From a virus (lineage: Duplodnaviria > Caudoviricetes), in the IMG/VR virus record IMGVR_UViG_3300043450_000376: a stretch of 64,000 nt of DNA, one strand, 5' to 3'. Shown here in pieces: positions 3,702 through 58,148 of the stretch. The notes beneath the pieces were generated by a model. The model ran no database searches. It was not told where the DNA came from and worked only from the letters and a program-made list of their open reading frames with translations. The translations under genes were made by a program, and so were the position numbers. How positions within the stretch are numbered: position 1 is the stretch's first letter; every line of letters begins with the position of its first letter.

Positions 3702-3928
3702 TGGTAAAGACACTAGTACTACACAGAGAAGACACAAAGGTAATATATTGCCTAGGTGGTGGCGAAGAAATCCAATTGAATAATGCGGTAATCCGTATTA
3801 CATTTCCGGAAACTACTCGTCAAATTAAGACCATTTCGTTTGGCACTCAAGAAGAAGCAGACTCTGCTTTTAAGGAGATTCAAGACTGGCTTGCTAGCAC
3901 GCTAGCCCAGTTGGTTATGGAACTATAA
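3701..3928 (+). CDS. hypothetical protein
   Basis: ORF track; TAATG coupling. Confidence 0.65.
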   Translation: MVKTLVLHREDTKVIYCLGGGEEIQLNNAVIRITFPETTRQIKTISFGTQEEADSAFKEIQDWLASTLAQLVMEL

Positions 3929-3932
3929 GAAT

Positions 3933-4000
3933 TGTTAATAACTTTTCTTAAAATAAGTCCTCAAAGATTTTTTTCTTTGAGGATTTTTTATTATATTAGC
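3933..4000 (+). promoter_or_regulatory. class I promoter with embedded perfect inverted repeat
   Basis: TGTTAATAAC at 3933; TCCTCAAAGA/TCTTTGAGGA; TATATTAG at 3992. Confidence 0.7.
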
Positions 4001-4026
4001 TCTATAACCAATTAACTAAAGAAGAT

Positions 4027-4182
4027 ATGTGGACACTAGATTGCAGCTACTACAAGAAAGAATTCTCAACTCTACAAGAACTTATCGATGATGTCATGTC
4101 CAGCGGCATGGATCCAAATTACGAGATCCTGCGAGATGGCAAGCCTACGGGCGAAGAGCTATGGGATTTTATAGTCCCATAA
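4027..4182 (+). CDS. small hypothetical protein (51 aa)
   Basis: Manual translation MWTLDCSYYKKEFSTLQELIDDVMSSGMDPNYEI... Confidence 0.7.
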   Translation: MWTLDCSYYKKEFSTLQELIDDVMSSGMDPNYEILRDGKPTGEELWDFIVP

Positions 4183-4270
4183 TTTTTTGAAAATACGTGC
4201 TCAAATATTTTTTACTGTCAATTATTTTTATTATATTAGCTTTATATTAATCAACTAAACCCTTAAATGT

Positions 4271-4489
4271 ATGTATGTAATTATTAATCTTAATCACGAT
4301 GGTGATTCCTATTTCTTAACTGAAAACCTAGACAAAGCCCAAGCGGAGTTTAATGAGTGTTGCAAAGAAGACGAATATAACTTCAAAGTAATCCTATGTC
4401 GTCCAACTCTTGAAGGAACATTTGGATTTGGAAGTCGTGGCGAACTTTATGGTGCGGAGATCATTGAAGAATGGGAGAGAGAAGATTAG
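4271..4489 (+). CDS. hypothetical protein, acidic
   Basis: ORF track; preceded by TGTCA...TATATTAG at 4216-4239. Confidence 0.7.
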   Translation: MYVIINLNHDGDSYFLTENLDKAQAEFNECCKEDEYNFKVILCRPTLEGTFGFGSRGELYGAEIIEEWERED

Positions 4490-4501
4490 TCTCTCCCAAA
4501 T

Positions 4502-4568
4502 TGTTAATAACTTTATGAAAATAATTAATAAAAAGTTTTTTACTGTCAAATAAAAGTATTATATTTAC
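4502..4568 (+). promoter_or_regulatory. class I promoter
   Basis: TGTTAATAAC at 4502; TGTCA-N11-TATATTTAC. Confidence 0.75.
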
Positions 4569-4593
4569 TCTATAACCAATTAAAAAATAACAT

Positions 4594-5010
4594 ATGTCAA
4601 ATCAAATCGTGTTCGCCCGTTTCGGAATGGGACCAGACCCAAGAGTTTCAGAAGTATTAATGTCTGAAATTATTTTAAACAAAACTGACGCAAAAATTCT
4701 TCCACTTCCTGGAATTATTATCTCAGTTTTTAAAAGTGAGTTGACACCAACTCAAATTCGGGATCGTTTTAAAAACGATAGTGAGTTAAATGAAGTTCCA
4801 TTTATGGTTACGACCTTAGAAGATTTCGATATTAATCTTCCAGAAAAAATTCGTAAATCAGTTTTTGGTTTAGGTGAAACCTCATCACCAACAAGTTCCA
4901 CATCACACTTAACAATGGATGACTTATTGGAATTGATTTCAGTTAAAGGTTTAAGTGGACTAACCGTCGACGAAAAATCCAGACTCGATGTATTACGAAG
5001 TGAGTTTTAG
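4594..5010 (+). CDS. hypothetical protein
   Basis: ORF track. Confidence 0.75.
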   Translation: MSNQIVFARFGMGPDPRVSEVLMSEIILNKTDAKILPLPGIIISVFKSELTPTQIRDRFKNDSELNEVPFMVTTLEDFDINLPEKIRKSVFGLGETSSPTSSTSHLTMDDLLELISVKGLSGLTVDEKSRLDVLRSEF

Positions 5011-5313: not shown

Positions 5314-5826
5314 ATGACAAATCAAATCAGAGCAGCTCGGCCAAACCTTAATCCAAAGTCACTACCAACCTTGGCGCTTGCAGGTAGAGCCAACATCACC
5401 TTCCGCAATAATGAACAACTTACCCACATGAACGTGCGTATCAAGCAGTTACGTGACAAGGAGGATCGCAAAAAGATGCTGCCTATTTACTACGTCAATA
5501 TCTCTCTATTGGCGGACGGGCGTAGCGGTCATCAGTTTGCAGGTACCCTATTTGCCGAGCCCTTAACCTATGTATTGGGCAAAGGAGTTACACCAAGCTC
5601 GCGACTGGCACAGGCTCTAGGCTGGGTGGTAGCTGCTATTAAGGACCCTACAATTTTGGGAACCCGAGTAGGTCTATTTCATAATGGGACCTGCTGCAAA
5701 TGTGGCTTGCCATTAACCCATCCAGAAAGTATCAATACTGCAATGGGACCTGTTTGTTTGGAGAGAGTAAAAGCCGCAATGACATCAGTAGACTTTTTCG
5801 ACACCTTTACCCCAATCGGGGTATAG
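5314..5826 (+). CDS. hypothetical protein with C-terminal Zn-binding DUF6011-like domain
   Basis: CCKCGLPLTHPESINTAMGPVC motif. Confidence 0.7.
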   Translation: MTNQIRAARPNLNPKSLPTLALAGRANITFRNNEQLTHMNVRIKQLRDKEDRKKMLPIYYVNISLLADGRSGHQFAGTLFAEPLTYVLGKGVTPSSRLAQALGWVVAAIKDPTILGTRVGLFHNGTCCKCGLPLTHPESINTAMGPVCLERVKAAMTSVDFFDTFTPIGV

Positions 5827-5843
5827 GTTATACTTAGTTACAG

Positions 5844-5910
5844 TGTTAATAACTTTTTGAAAATAAGTAACAAAAAGTTTTTTACTGTCAAATAAAAGTA
5901 TTATATTTAC
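5844..5910 (+). promoter_or_regulatory. class I promoter
   Basis: TGTTAATAAC at 5844; TGTCA-N11-TATATTTAC. Confidence 0.75.
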
Positions 5911-5935
5911 TTATAACTAATTAAAACAAATAAAG

Positions 5936-6187
5936 ATGATTTTTCAAATAAAAAACGAAAGCAACGAGGTTGGACTGTTAAAAGTCGTTGAATGTATAGG
6001 AAATACCTGGTCTCCCGAGTCATATGGTGATATTATCAGTAAGTCATTAAAACTCTTTTCTGAAATAGGAGAGGCCGATGGATGGGATGTTGATGATCTT
6101 GATGATTTTGTGGAATTCAACAATCTGAGAAACGTATTAATTTTGGAGCATTTTTTTATAGTGGACGAAATACAATTTTATCAATAA
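5936..6187 (+). CDS. hypothetical protein, acidic
   Basis: ORF track. Confidence 0.7.
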   Translation: MIFQIKNESNEVGLLKVVECIGNTWSPESYGDIISKSLKLFSEIGEADGWDVDDLDDFVEFNNLRNVLILEHFFIVDEIQFYQ

Positions 6188-43299: not shown

Positions 43300-43334
43300 T
43301 AGGTATTATAAAGTTAGTAACTATGAAAACACTG

Positions 43335-43378: not shown

Positions 43379-43400
43379 GTTCTTTGACATGTTGGAAAGT
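43379..43400 (+). promoter_or_regulatory. rrn-type boxA antitermination element
   Basis: GTTCTTTGACATGTTGGAAAGT immediately before tRNA-Phe. Confidence 0.7.
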
Positions 43401-46369: not shown

Positions 46370-46443
46370 GGGGGTGTAGCTCAGTTGGCTAGAGCATCTG
46401 CCTTGCACGCAGAGGGTCGCAGGTTCGATTCCTGTCACCTCCA
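46370..46443 (+). tRNA. tRNA-Ala(TGC)
   Basis: Loop CTTGCAC; G3:U70. Confidence 0.95.
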
Positions 46444-46445
46444 CT

Positions 46446-46633
46446 ACAAATCTTACATAAGACGGGTTAGCACCGTTGAAAGAGACCTTGGCTTCGTGGG
46501 AGTAATTACCCAATGAAGTATACATGACCCAAGGTATTATGTGATGGACCCTGCTCTGTAGTGCACTTACACCAGGTGAACAGTAAACTATGTTCAATCA
46601 AATCCACAAGCATGGTGAGCATGCAAGATTTGT
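46446..46633 (+). ncRNA. candidate multibranched ~190-nt ncRNA
   Basis: 9-bp closing stem plus about nine internal helices. Confidence 0.65.
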
Positions 46634-46638
46634 TTTTT

Positions 46639-46710
46639 GGCCCCATCGTCTATCGGTTAGGACGCCAGGTTTTCATCCTGGAAAGTCGGGTTCGACTCCC
46701 GGTGGGGCTA
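46639..46710 (+). tRNA. tRNA-Glu(TTC)
   Basis: Loop TTTTCAT. Confidence 0.95.
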
Positions 46711-46717
46711 CACAATT

Positions 46718-46789
46718 GGTCCTGTAGTTAATCGGCTATAACGCCGCCCTGTCACGGCGGTATGCCGGGTTCGATTCCCGGTGGGACCG
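46718..46789 (+). tRNA. tRNA-Asp(GTC)
   Basis: Loop CTGTCAC, G73. Confidence 0.95.
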
Positions 46790-46794
46790 CAACT

Positions 46795-46895
46795 AGTTAG
46801 GAGTCCATTGGTTGGAGGCACCTCCCCAAGGTTGAGTACAGTTAGGCTGACTCTTTATGGCAAAGCTGGAATAGGTTCGAATCCTGTCCTGACTA
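46795..46895 (+). tRNA. atypical tRNA-like RNA with enlarged D domain (possible TAG anticodon)
   Basis: Acceptor AGTTAGG/CCTGACT, T arm ATAGG-TTCGAAT-CCTGT, bulged anticodon-like stem. Confidence 0.55.
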
Positions 46896-46975
46896 CAACA
46901 GTGTCTCGGTACGCTCTGACGAAAGTTAACGACGAGGTCCCGGCAGGCAGAAGGCCTCTGATCCTGCCCAAAGCT

Positions 46976-47047
46976 GCGAATATCGTATAGTGGTTATTAC
47001 TCCATCCTTCCAAGTTGGAGACGACAGTTCGATTCTGTCTATTCGCT
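46976..47047 (+). tRNA. tRNA-Gly(TCC)
   Basis: Loop CTTCCAA, U73. Confidence 0.92.
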
Positions 47048-47102
47048 CAAAAAGTTTTTAGGTATATTAAAAACTATTATTAACTAAGTAATACAATAAA
47101 AC

Positions 47103-47531
47103 ATGAATATCACAAAAGCACTTAAACAGAAAAACAAATTAGTTTCAAAAACTAATGAGTACATTTCGCATGTTTCGGCGTACAACTCGATTCAAGAAGG
47201 AACTACACGTCCTTATGATGCAAGAGAAGCGTTGGAAAAAGCAATGGCGTCGGTTGATGAATTAGTTGCCCTAAAAACAGCTATTCACAAAGCTAACTCA
47301 AAGGTTTATGATAAAATCTTTAAATTGGCTGAACTAAAATCTTTGGTTTCTAAATTGAAAAGTTTGGATTGCAAAGAAGGAATGCACCAATCATATCGAA
47401 TGGATGCTCCAGTAAAATACACTACACAAATCTCAATTGTTGAGAAAGACCAGTGGATTGAAAAATTGGAGTCTCAAATCGAGATGTTGCAAGAGGAGTT
47501 AGAAGCTCACAATGCAAAAACCAAAATTTAA
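47103..47531 (+). CDS. coiled-coil protein resembling the DIP1984/DUF6847 family
   Basis: MNITKALKQKNKL...LVALKTAIHKAN...IFKLAELKSL...IEMLQEELEAHNAKTKI. Confidence 0.65.
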   Translation: MNITKALKQKNKLVSKTNEYISHVSAYNSIQEGTTRPYDAREALEKAMASVDELVALKTAIHKANSKVYDKIFKLAELKSLVSKLKSLDCKEGMHQSYRMDAPVKYTTQISIVEKDQWIEKLESQIEMLQEELEAHNAKTKI

Positions 47532-47536
47532 AATAT

Positions 47537-47730
47537 AGGGGAGAGAAAAGAGTGAAGGGGGATCGGTAGCAACAAATGGCCACAAGCTATTTCTTACATA
47601 CTAGCTATCCAATCGATGTTAAGACGAAGACACTGAATTCAAAGTTCAAGATTCAAGTAATTCAAAAATGGGCAAGTCAAAACACAACAATCTTTCAGCG
47701 AAAATTTTTTCGGATCTCTTTTCAAACCCT
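47537..47730 (+). ncRNA. candidate structured RNA with tandem TTCAA repeats, downstream of the DIP1984-like gene
   Basis: Ends pair (AGGG/CCCT, GAAAAGAG/CTCTTTTC) and are followed by a T-run. Confidence 0.5.
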
Positions 47731-47802
47731 TAATTTTTTTTTTACTTTTATTAAACCGATATAGAATAAAGTAGGTATAATAAATAAGTAAACACAAAAT
47801 AA

Positions 47803-47812
47803 GTTCTTTGAA
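47803..47812 (+). promoter_or_regulatory. boxA-like element before the large ncRNA
   Basis: GTTCTTTGAA downstream of promoter-like TAGGTATAAT. Confidence 0.6.
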
Positions 47813-47822
47813 TTTTATTGAT

Positions 47823-48672
47823 ATATGTAGCCTAGCTTGCTAGGTTGCAACACGGTCGCCTATGATCGTTAAATAAATCTGGAAACAGATATAAAGTGGA
47901 GCTATAAGACTTATCGGCTCTGCGGTTTCGCAAGGAACTCAAGTAGGCAAGCAGGATATCAGAAGTCCTGAGTATCTGAGGGTAACACTGTAGGAGAAAT
48001 GGAATGCTGACTAGGCGATGTGGGTCGTTTAGTTGAGAGGGGAACCTCAATAAGATTAACCTGTAGGATATTTGCAAGGAGTGGACTCATCCGACTCCAT
48101 GATTGCGAACTCCAATTTAATGGGAACCTTAAAGTCGAAAGACAAGTTGGTGTACAGACGGTGCTGTTACTAACCTTATCATCAGTCTACCAAGGCTGCA
48201 GTTAAGAGGAATCCGGAAAAATTGAGGTAGGGATATCTCAGAGAGTAGTTAAGTATCGACCCTGACAAAATCGGGGTTGGCCTAATGACGAGCCACTACT
48301 TTCATAATCCACAGAGTCAAAAACTTTGGAATAAAGTTCTATTGGTGAATAACTAATCCAACCCAAAAAACAAAGCTTAAGCGCTCGTCAGCTGCGAACG
48401 AAAGGTGCCTACCTAGTAACTGGTTGTCAGTTGCCGTAGAGGATCGCAAGTCCAATACGAGTTCTCAGAAAAATCTATAGCCTCGCAAGGGTTAACGGGA
48501 TCGGCAGATTCTGGTAGATATAATATGAGGAGAGTAGTTCAAACCCGCAGCTCAAGGAGTGGTACACCTAAAAAACCGGCACTGTTAGAATAGAGATCAA
48601 AAGTCTCTGGATAAGTAGGGAAACAATAATCCTATGTAAAGATCTAACGTTAAAACGTATAATCTCAGCGTT
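47823..48672 (+). ncRNA. large structured ncRNA, GOLLD-like
   Basis: About 850 nt without a credible ORF, between tRNA genes; many hairpins and GNRA/GCAA loops; duplicated GAGAGTAGTT; 3' end GGGAAACAATAATCC...AATCTCAGCG plus T-run, matching my recollection of GOLLD. Confidence 0.7.
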
Positions 48673-48711
48673 TTTTTACTTTCCAACAATCACATCTTGA
48701 AAATATTATAT

Positions 48712-48784
<73 letters not shown>

Positions 48785-48794
48785 CTAAAAAGAA

Positions 48795-48817
48795 AAAGCC
48801 GCAATTAGCGGCTTTCT
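48795..48817. terminator. bidirectional terminator between convergent units
   Basis: AAAGCCGC/GCGGCTTT. Confidence 0.75.
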
Positions 48818-48840
48818 GTGTTTATCTAGTTTATTATAAG

Positions 48841-49782
48841 TTATGCAATAGTTGATGCATAGTCTAGTGCTCTTGCATAACCTCTTGCACTATGGCCGGC
48901 ACGAATATCTGTACCCCATCCAGCATTGGCTTGAACATAGTCAGTAACAGCAGATTCTAAATTATTGTAGGAGTTTAGGTCTTTACCCTTTCCTTTAAAA
49001 CTATTAATAAAGTACAACATTGCAAATTCAGCTGCAATATTTGGATCTTCTAGTAATTCAGGTTCCTCAACAATATTAATTTCAGTACCAGCTTTAAGCT
49101 TACCCATTTTATCAAATAGGTCTTGCAGTTTTTTATAGTTAGCCTTAAATGTTATTTGGTTAAATCCACGACCTCTATATCTAGCCCCATCGCCAGGTTG
49201 AGTATTGCCGTATTTTACACCACGACCAGTTGGATCGTCTACTCCATATACTCTATCCCAAAATTTAGTAGGCTCTTCTTTTAGTGCAGTAAGTTGACTA
49301 TCGGAAAGATCTGCTACTCTTGCACCATATACTTCTCTGATTCTTGAATTTGAAGTATTACTATAGTCCCCTTCTGGAGTTAAGTTTGAACTTTCTTTTG
49401 AAATTACACCAAGAATTGCTTTTCTTGCAAAGTCATTTGTAATTCCATGTCTTTCCATTGCAGCCTCAAGCGCTAAGACGTTTTCTGCTGGAATTTTCTT
49501 GTCAAACTTTTTAAATTTAGTAGACGACTTAGCAGAATCTGATTTAGATTTTTCTTTATCATCAGCTTTAGTATCAGTCTTTATACCTAGGGCAGAAGCA
49601 GTCTTATCTATAACTGCAGCTGCGGTTGATCCAGGTTCTGCAATTGAAGTTACTGAACTTGGTGCAGGCTCAACTGCCTTTCCGGTAAATGCCGATGTTG
49701 CAAGATCGCCAATCCATCCTAAAAATGAAGTGTCTTCATTTAATCTTTGCCATGACTTAAAGTCTCTAATGTTTTGTCCCAT
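48841..49782 (-). CDS. GH19 (chitinase-like) peptidoglycan hydrolase with capsid-targeting-like N-terminus
   Basis: GDGARYRGRGFNQIT..ANY; MGQNIRDFKSWQRLNE; AGATAAATA at 49806-49814 (minus). Confidence 0.8.
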   Translation of the reverse strand: MGQNIRDFKSWQRLNEDTSFLGWIGDLATSAFTGKAVEPAPSSVTSIAEPGSTAAAVIDKTASALGIKTDTKADDKEKSKSDSAKSSTKFKKFDKKIPAENVLALEAAMERHGITNDFARKAILGVISKESSNLTPEGDYSNTSNSRIREVYGARVADLSDSQLTALKEEPTKFWDRVYGVDDPTGRGVKYGNTQPGDGARYRGRGFNQITFKANYKKLQDLFDKMGKLKAGTEINIVEEPELLEDPNIAAEFAMLYFINSFKGKGKDLNSYNNLESAVTDYVQANAGWGTDIRAGHSARGYARALDYASTIA

Positions 49783-49860
49783 TAATAATTAGTTATTTCT
49801 ATAAATATTTATCTAAGGAAGATAACCCAGTTAACAAACGTAGTATAATAACTTAGTTAT

Positions 49861-49949
49861 GCCGACGTGATGAAACAGGTAGACATGAGAGACTTAAAAT
49901 CTCTTGGGCAGTAATGCCCGTGCCGGTTCGATTCCGGCCGTCGGTACCA
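49861..49949 (+). tRNA. tRNA-Leu(TAA)
   Basis: Loop CTTAAAA, long variable arm, encoded CCA. Confidence 0.95.
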
Positions 49950-49966
49950 AAAATAACCTCAACTAA

Positions 49967-50254
49967 ATGTCAGAGGAGCTTACTAAAGAAGAGCGAGGAA
50001 AAATCCTTGCTGAAATGATGCGATTAGACCAAGAGGCTGGTTTATATGATGAACCGGTTGAAAATCCACTAGTCAAAGAAAAATTAAAGGACACTAATTA
50101 TTATAAATTTGCTGGCACTACGCCAGACGGATTTGTCCTGATTCCAACCGAAGTTATCGATATGCTAGATGATTTTGAAGAGTGGAAGGATTTTAAATAT
50201 AGAAAGTTTGAATGGATAGAAGAAAAATCCAAACAGGTTTTAAGAGTAAAATAA
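49967..50254 (+). CDS. hypothetical protein
   Basis: ORF track. Confidence 0.7.
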   Translation: MSEELTKEERGKILAEMMRLDQEAGLYDEPVENPLVKEKLKDTNYYKFAGTTPDGFVLIPTEVIDMLDDFEEWKDFKYRKFEWIEEKSKQVLRVK

Positions 50255-57845: not shown

Positions 57846-58148
57846 ATGGAATTAACTTCATTCGCTTTAGGTATGCTAACGATGGTTGCTATTGCATTTG
57901 CAGTAGTAGTTGTTATTGGTTTGCTTAAGGTTAACAGACAAGCAAAGCAGATTGAAAATCTGCACCAAGGAATCGATCAAATGAATCGAAATTTTCAACA
58001 AGATCTTCAAATATGGAGAACAGATTTAGAGTTAGAATTAAAGAGAGTCGAATTAGAGTGCAAATCCTACACTGATTCAAGACTTGATAAAAAATTAGGA
58101 TTGACAGGTTCAAAGTCACAAACAGAGAATACGCTAATTACTAGTTAA
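57846..58148 (+). CDS. N-terminally anchored coiled-coil protein
   Basis: TM helix followed by coiled coil. Confidence 0.7.
   Translation: MELTSFALGMLTMVAIAFAVVVVIGLLKVNRQAKQIENLHQGIDQMNRNFQQDLQIWRTDLELELKRVELECKSYTDSRLDKKLGLTGSKSQTENTLITS

Follow-up and report, generated by a model that had tools for sequence, protein, structure and literature searches.

GOLLD RNAs, a family described in 2009, are carried by phages, lie near tRNA islands and rise in abundance during lysis, and a ribosome pull-down has been reported for them. GOLLD forms closed cages consisting of RNA only, with 10-14 copies per cage and a variable linker inside; one member, env-38, is 833 nucleotides (nt) long and was solved as a 14-mer cage (PDB 9MEE; Kretsch et al. 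2025, PMC12286853). Here we analyse a GOLLD locus of the virus record IMGVR_UViG_3300043450_000376 (Duplodnaviria; Caudoviricetes), a stretch of 64,000 nt referred to below as the window. The phage is a large, uncultured one from freshwater, and the locus forms part of its tRNA island. A first-pass annotation, made from the sequence only, had proposed a GOLLD-like RNA of about 850 nt at 47803-48677 with its own promoter, boxA and terminal U-tract, and every sequence feature named there was found where it had been placed. Positions 47852-48671 on the + strand are a complete, typical GOLLD, composed of an env-38-like 5' domain and the conserved 3' domain.

The assignment to GOLLD holds for both domains. 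A cmscan search of the whole window against Rfam 15 matched RF02032 along its entire length (model positions 1-416 of 416); the match spans 48241-48671 and scores 243.2 bits (E 7.5e-68), where the gathering score is 150. This model represents the conserved 3' domain of GOLLD only. Neither ROOL nor any other large-RNA family, which the annotation had listed for checking, matched in that search or in a permissive rescan of 46400-48900. The 5' domain is carried by relatives: more than 25 IMG/VR GOLLDs align by blastn at 65-73% identity from window position 47853 to 48678, and among the matches listed three relatives are 94-95% identical to the window across 1.1 kilobases (kb), with all others at 73% or less. 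The wider sample of relatives comprises at least 115 GOLLD-bearing viral contigs fetched with one exact 3'-end pattern. Covariation among homologues, named in the annotation as a check, is present: in an alignment of the leader and 5' domain from 31 sequences (A1), the RNAalifold consensus has 91 pairs, 73 of them with compensatory changes, and pairing extends to 95.3% of cells. In a control that shifts the 3' partner by 1-3 columns, this share falls to 37-43% and only 24-38 compensated pairs are left. From core to end the RNA measures 820 nt; the loci sampled range from 741 to 829 nt. As annotated, the stretch is poor in open reading frames (ORFs), the longest having at most 81 amino acids, and comparatively rich in G+C (0.43-0.45 against 0.32-0.37 in the flanks). 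ARAGORN detected no tRNA inside the GOLLD of the window.

The internal elements conform to the same picture. The duplicated GAGAGTAGTT noted in the annotation (48241 and 48530) has both copies inside conserved GOLLD elements of the Rfam alignment; the two annotated tetraloop hairpins (GTC-GAAA-GAC at 48136-48145 and CCT-CGCA-AGG at 48482-48491) are present, and their GAAA and CGCA loops likewise lie within conserved GOLLD elements, together with the terminal loop UAUAAUCUCAG of the 3' domain, the 3-bp stem of which covaries (CGU/GCG, GCU/GGC, GGU/GCC, ACU/GGU). The A-rich linker at about 48300-48385 is the variable part, with a conservation of 0.39-0.57 at 48320-48380 against 0.7-0.9 elsewhere, and in the cmscan alignment to RF02032 it appears as insertion or with low posterior. 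The solved env-38 construct starts at a sequence matching window position ~47852, and the window contains the GAAA loop at 48136-48145, an AGGGAUA motif at 48229-48235 and the hairpins CCUCGCAAGG and AUCGGCAGAU with CGCAAG and CGGCAG loops. On our reading, matched by eye to the printed env-38 sequence, these would correspond to L11a, the B4 bridge and L21a/L21b of env-38, elements that the published work implicates in cage contacts between copies. Two exact-pattern scans of viral contigs yielded no env-38-like locus, and none close occurs among the at least 115 loci listed; the mapping onto env-38 was therefore made by eye, using short motifs only. GOLLD is a curated family with solved structures, to which the window adds another member and not a new RNA class. 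The features of the locus are as follows.

47772..47781, + strand: promoter-like -10 element TAGGTATAAT, with TATAAT at 47776-47781 and no recognisable -35
47803..47812, + strand: boxA-like leader motif GTTCTTTGAA, a sequence match kept in relatives
47827..47848, + strand: leader hairpin between boxA and GOLLD core, from the fold
47852..48240, + strand: GOLLD 5' domain of env-38 type (P1-P13, published numbering), from blastn and RNAalifold
48241..48671, + strand: GOLLD 3' domain, Rfam RF02032 complete, from cmscan
48671..48677, + strand: U7 tract, 3' end of the abundant RNA, from contig ends and the T-run in relatives
48712..48785, + strand: initiator-type tRNA-Met(CAT), from ARAGORN and Rfam
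48795..48815, both strands: strong two-way intrinsic terminator, from a terminator scan of both strands and the fold

A stable RNA of about 834 nt is made from this locus in nature. The stretch was found in DNA runs of freshwater and marine metagenomes, and six metatranscriptome runs match 0.67-0.77 of the sampled words of a 1.2-kb query, approximately the share of the query that the RNA occupies. Four RNA runs from four studies (lake, estuary) were compared with 46800-50000. One contig extends over 47844-48677, with a sequencing adapter directly abutting 47844 (run X16), another over 47842-48675 (X18) and a pair over 47836-48003 and 47974-48669 (X17); the fourth run (X15) gave four pieces between 47675 and 48668, with a depth of ~5600-6000 on the RNA body and 615 on the leader-spanning piece (47675-47906); the depth of the flanking protein genes was 4-90. 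The RNA is thus about 100 times deeper than its flanking genes in X15, the sole run that covers the flanks too, and since uniform DNA carry-over cannot give a 100-fold step, a stable RNA must exist, as the annotation had supposed. The 5' contig starts of three studies agree within 8 nt and the 3' ends of four (48668, 48669, 48675 and 48677) within 10 nt. Of the annotated extent, what stands is a large discrete RNA; what does not is its full span, the abundant RNA running for ~834 nt from 47842/4 to 48675/7 and not for 875 nt. It seems to start within the leader hairpin, 8-10 nt 5' of the core, and hence without boxA. The spacer and the tRNA downstream are without contig cover in X15 and X16, where missing cover is uninformative.

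Upstream of the core, a promoter-like element and a leader recur in a defined layout. The TATAAT hexamer of TAGGTATAAT begins 27 nt before boxA, and four relatives of 94-95% identity share the 20-nt block TAGGTATAATAAATAAGTAA without a single change, whereas they differ in the spacer immediately before it (alignment A2). The annotated promoter is upheld as to TAGGTATAAT, which is present and kept in relatives, and not as to a sigma-70 promoter of standard form, for there is no -35 hexamer and a sigma-70 scan made no call at 47772. At no more than one mismatch the TAGGTATAAT motif occurs 17 times in the window against 8.4 expected, a number reached by 1 of 100 shuffles. The + strand sites of TAGGTATAAT or TAGGTATATT (6845, 7289, 10398, 32598, 43300, 47059, 47772, 55692 and 59071) are mostly intergenic when judged against the ORF list and have no conserved -35; they probably represent a phage-specific promoter class. 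For the site at 47772 the transcription start would lie near 47788. The opening hairpin of the annotation, GTAGCCTAGC/GCTAGGTTGC at 47827-47848, folds as 10 pairs including two G-U around a CUUG loop, in a 65-nt leader with a minimum free energy of -14.5 kcal/mol (z -1.9); across the family its site is a variable insert of 0 to ~100 nt (A1). Of 52 non-redundant leaders of the relatives, 40 have a Bacteroidota-type TAnnTTTG promoter element upstream of boxA, and in 32 of the 52 it stands at a fixed 34-36 nt before boxA; random 90-nt windows contain the element in 8.6% of cases. The clade of the window has TAGGTATAAT in its place. Most relatives also carry, between this element and boxA, a small covarying hairpin of CGGA-AAAG-UCCG type that lies just before boxA. 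The ribosomal RNA (rrn) leaders of Bacteroidota hosts share the layout of the GOLLD leaders, with looser spacing.

The motif annotated as boxA, GTTCTTTGAA, is present at 47803-47812 as the sole exact copy in the window, matches 10 of the 11 positions of the gammaproteobacterial consensus GYTCTTTAANA (PMC5725501), and is kept in the relatives. Conservation of the family begins 5' of the published GOLLD core, at GTTCTTTGA, which is found exact, 19-122 nt before the core, in 77 of the 85 loci whose upstream sequence was long enough. The boxA leader is left out of the published GOLLD model, which begins 3' of it. In 1.16 megabases of GOLLD loci there are 94 non-redundant exact sites against ~15 expected by chance, comprising 50 in GOLLD leaders, 16 at most 150 nt before a same-strand tRNA and 28 elsewhere. 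For comparison, 120 genomic 16S starts, mostly from Bacteroidota, were fetched and gave 102 usable rrn leaders: GTTCTTTGA is exact in 47 of them, 47-448 nt (mostly 75-250) before 16S, and 80 contain it at no more than one mismatch. The RNA contig 47675-47906 covers the motif, which thus lies in an RNA-covered leader. A second boxA-like site in the window, GTTCTTTGAC at 43379, follows TAGGTATTAT at 43300 and stands just before the tRNA-Phe (43405) that heads the tRNA array, a layout like that of the GOLLD. In the literature searched, no paper linked GOLLD with boxA, and the papers that mention both GOLLD and antitermination do not connect them. The simplest reading is that GTTCTTTGAA may be a functional rRNA-type boxA, to which, as we infer, NusB/NusE would bind in the leader.

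The alternative that fares best is that GTTCTTTGA is not a Nus-factor site and instead acts either at the DNA level, as part of the promoter or as the site of a phage regulator, or as a piece of the GOLLD structure; we consider this unlikely, though with a share of the probability that should be kept in mind. It draws on the apparent absence of the motif from the abundant RNA, and on three of its bases that RNAalifold pairs with the junction of the 5' and 3' domains. Those three pairs show essentially no compensation (0, 1 and 0 sequences), and RNAalifold gave no covarying partner of boxA among the 31 sequences; a structural role is also a poor fit to the variable distance of 19-122 nt from the core, and the solved GOLLD folds without the motif. 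Also against the alternative stand the identical motif in the rrn leaders of the host phylum, at a similar distance behind TAnnTTTG promoters, and its occurrence before tRNA genes of the same phages. Around the GOLLD of Caulobacter phage phiCbK, 2.5 kb were examined, of which 1.4 kb lie upstream of it, and GYTCTTTRA does not occur there; this favours the alternative and speaks against a boxA universal to the GOLLD family. As a separate observation, the uncultured 635-kb phage LR745206.1 (L236:1240-1420) has a tRNA-Met whose 1:72 position is unpaired, then a hairpin and GTTCTTTGAAA, then a pair of leader hairpins and a GOLLD (287 bits); boxA lies there between tRNA and GOLLD within what seems to be one transcript.

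At the 3' end, the annotated closing sequence AATCTCAGCG occupies 48661-48670 and is followed by T7 at 48671-48677; a T-run is found at the same place in most relatives. The U-tract thus stands, and the hairpin that precedes it proved weak (-3.9 kcal/mol, z -0.6), so that weak termination and trimming are indistinguishable at U7. A leader-trailer helix as in rRNA operons has no support, duplex energies in 27 loci being no better than with shuffled trailers (mean z +0.2), and rRNA-like leader-trailer processing is rejected on this ground. The terminator at 48795-48815 has a hairpin of -12.6 kcal/mol (z -3.3) and closes the GOLLD-tRNA unit on the + strand as well as an endolysin-like gene on the - strand. 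Between the two lies tRNA-Met(CAT) at 48712-48785, 41 nt downstream of the GOLLD, named tRNA-fMet in the annotation and of initiator type: its C1 cannot pair with U72 and its anticodon stem is GGG/CCC. An unpaired 1:72 is a hallmark of bacterial initiator tRNAs, and it recurs in six further distinct sequences; most of the distinct tRNA-Met sequences that follow a GOLLD have such a mismatch (C-A, C-U, U-U or G-A). In the relatives, tRNA-Met(CAT) accounts for 19 of the 21 same-strand tRNAs that start at most 150 nt after a GOLLD; loci with this tRNA directly after the GOLLD include L004, L012, L014, L019, L022, L044, L058 and L087. In several relatives only 11-18 nt separate the GOLLD from the tRNA, too few to accommodate a promoter, and co-transcription is therefore the rule in them; in the window the tRNA-Met is probably co-transcribed with the GOLLD.

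It is proposed that transcription starts near 47788, likely from the recurring phage promoter of TAGGTATAAT type. At about +15 of the nascent leader the host-type boxA would then recruit NusB/NusE together with the other components of the rRNA antitermination complex, enabling the polymerase to complete the untranslated ~830-nt RNA without Rho-dependent termination, possibly with chaperoned folding; the chances for and against this step we take to be about even. The leader would be trimmed to ~47842-47844, somewhat more probably than not being so processed. Most transcripts would end in U7, and the rest would run into the initiator tRNA-Met and stop at the 48795-48815 terminator. The mature ~834-nt RNA, by analogy with env-38, would be expected with good probability to self-assemble, free of protein, into a closed cage of 14 copies that encloses the variable linker; the 14-mer is the best guess because the GAAA loop, AGGGAUA and the two hairpin loops match env-38 contact elements by eye. 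Taken whole, with the GOLLD identity at its centre and each proposed step at the strength just given, this explanation appears to us very probable. More tentatively, and leaning slightly towards doubt, we suggest that the GOLLDs of lake phages (mostly Bacteroidota phages by promoter type) may be miniature rRNA operons, in which a promoter-proximal host boxA equips RNA polymerase with the Nus machinery for antitermination and folding, without which the 830-nt cage RNA would be neither finished nor correctly folded; removal of the leader would follow, and the initiator tRNA-Met would be released from the same transcript. If this is true, biogenesis of the cage would depend on the ribosome-synthesis machinery of the host and be coupled to translation initiation.

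Several points weigh against this explanation. Cage formation and boxA function are both deduced from sequence alone, by likeness in the case of the cage, and other GOLLDs form 10-mers or 12-mers. The sample of relatives is biased to lake phages, phiCbK is a GOLLD locus where the motif was not seen in the 2.5 kb examined, and the small hairpin found before boxA in most relatives is missing from the window. The 3' hairpin, at -3.9 kcal/mol, is too weak for a standard intrinsic terminator, as which it is rejected. Assembled contigs prove neither transcript ends nor strand, and the agreement of their ends is to be taken as a hint; one contig spans the putative promoter, so that read-through from upstream occurs too. 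Lastly, GOLLD was dispensable for phage production in Lactobacillus brevis, the sole case tested in the literature.

As to what the cage does, the reading we favour, though at clearly less than even odds, is a part in the phage takeover of translation; it is suggested by the constant company of tRNA genes, the presence of tRNAs for all 20 amino acids and the initiator tRNA-Met beside the GOLLD. A different function, which we think improbable, would be counter-defence, with the cage for instance drawing off tRNA-attacking nucleases or toxins of the host, in the manner of a decoy or sponge, and its tRNA-island site reflecting shared expression only. Phage tRNA islands are generally taken to make up for tRNAs lost to cleavage or depletion in the infected cell, which would suit such a role, and so would the lack of a protein partner conserved beside GOLLD and its dispensability in the laboratory host, a trait common among accessory counter-defence genes. 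No defence-related neighbour was found, however, and the pairing with an initiator-type tRNA-Met, together with the reported ribosome pull-down, leans towards translation.

The position of the 5' end admits a further alternative, in which the abundant RNA is a primary transcript starting near 47842-47844, while TAGGTATAAT and boxA would serve another transcript or a minor one. The RNA contigs do begin inside the leader hairpin (47836, 47842 and 47844 in three studies, one start abutted by an adapter), and the leader-bearing contig is ~10 times less deep. Such a start would nevertheless fall in a hairpin arm with no promoter-like element at the right distance; promoter, boxA and hairpin are invariant in close relatives, the geometry of promoter and boxA before the core is fixed across the family, and rRNA leaders too are removed post-transcriptionally. 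We accordingly give this alternative a small chance and prefer trimming of a longer transcript. That the stretch is no GOLLD at all, being a new large RNA class, the fallback of the annotation, or a decayed protein gene, can be set aside as having next to no probability, the new class being ruled out by the full-length RF02032 match far over the cut-off, with pairs that covary and no ORF above 81 amino acids.

The surroundings are those of a large phage. The window encodes 24 tRNAs between 43405 and 63511 that cover all 20 amino acids, two of them tRNA-Met(CAT), of which the GOLLD-adjacent one is initiator-type, as well as a phage topoisomerase II, an endolysin-like protein and a prohead-protease-like protein. 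A megablast comparison of 18 kb of the window with 50,697 phage records gave no match; the records that come nearest, at 55% identity in topoisomerase II, belong to uncultured huge phages. Recurrent neighbours of GOLLD include a 567-amino-acid protein without Pfam or PHROG match (16 of 46 GOLLD clusters, e.g. L064:6867-8567), an M42/M20-like peptidase (13 of 46, e.g. L001:5503-6537) and a ClpB-like AAA+ ATPase (9 of 46, e.g. L031:2667-4772). None of these three is encoded in the window; among the ten families tested, only a 99-amino-acid family gave a match there, a weak one of 30% identity at 57846-58091, and the endolysin-like family is the sole neighbour family common to the window and other GOLLD loci. 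A conserved protein partner beside GOLLD is rejected, as no family is constant across clusters, in line with an RNA-only particle.

Two further RNAs of the region deserve mention. A closed RNA domain of ~200 nt lies directly upstream of the GOLLD promoter at 47537-47745 (+), with a T-run at its end and a promoter-like CTCACA-17-TAAAAT at 47506-47534 nearby; its summed X15 depth is 3843-4941 (one overlapping contig, 2426) against 44-88 on the preceding ORF, a sum that may include contigs of other organisms. Among the matches listed, the domain is conserved solely in three relatives of 84-91% identity and not across GOLLD loci. In the tRNA-Ala/tRNA-Glu spacer, 46540-46602 (+) matches the freshwater-1 RNA (RF02979) over its full length at 71.2 bits against a gathering score of 72 (E 7e-16).

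Alone, the window provides one more GOLLD, and its value is in details that make the biology of the family testable. In situ evidence from several lakes shows that few transcripts of the locus are as abundant as this GOLLD, which comes from an uncultured phage, and gives its approximate ends; a boxA leader omitted from the GOLLD model suggests how a long untranslated RNA may escape Rho and fold co-transcriptionally; and the neighbouring tRNA is an initiator-type tRNA-Met with striking regularity.

Among known systems the closest is env-38, with which the window has in common a complete 3' domain, the type of the 5' domain and its opening sequence, a length of ~820-834 nt, a variable A-rich linker, by eye the GAAA loop, AGGGAUA and two hairpin loops, and a phage setting beside tRNA-Met. 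It differs in coming from another phage, in having the tRNA-Met downstream of the GOLLD, whereas that of env-38 is upstream, in its boxA leader outside the published model, and in that its oligomer is a sequence-based prediction. The GOLLDs of Streptococcus agalactiae (700 nt, 12-mer, PDB 9L0R), Mycobacterium and phiCbK share the 3' domain family and the tRNA-array setting; the S. agalactiae RNA is without P9, P11a-c and P21b, whereas the window has hairpins corresponding, by eye, to P11a and P21b. In phiCbK and some mycobacterial GOLLDs a tRNA lies inside the linker, which in the window contains none, and the 2.5-kb phiCbK stretch has no boxA-like motif, whereas the window has one. The phiCbK locus itself (L237, 103600-106100) contains a GOLLD of 165 bits with tRNA-Gly inside the linker and, 500 nt away on the other strand, a permuted transfer-messenger RNA. 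ROOL is likewise large, carried by phages near tRNA islands, and assembles into cages of RNA only; it is unrelated in sequence and fold, and no ROOL match was obtained in the window.

The last comparison is with the rrn operon. A bacterial rrn leader consists of a promoter, a boxB hairpin, boxA and boxC, and its antitermination complex comprises NusA, NusB, NusE, NusG, SuhB and S4. The window differs from such an operon in having no rRNA, no leader-trailer helix and no boxB-like hairpin, although most of its relatives have one. Like an rrn leader, its own leader has a promoter followed within ~15-20 nt by a boxA identical to the Bacteroidota rrn type; as in an rrn operon, the cargo is long, untranslated and highly structured, a tRNA is probably co-transcribed with it, and the leader is apparently removed.

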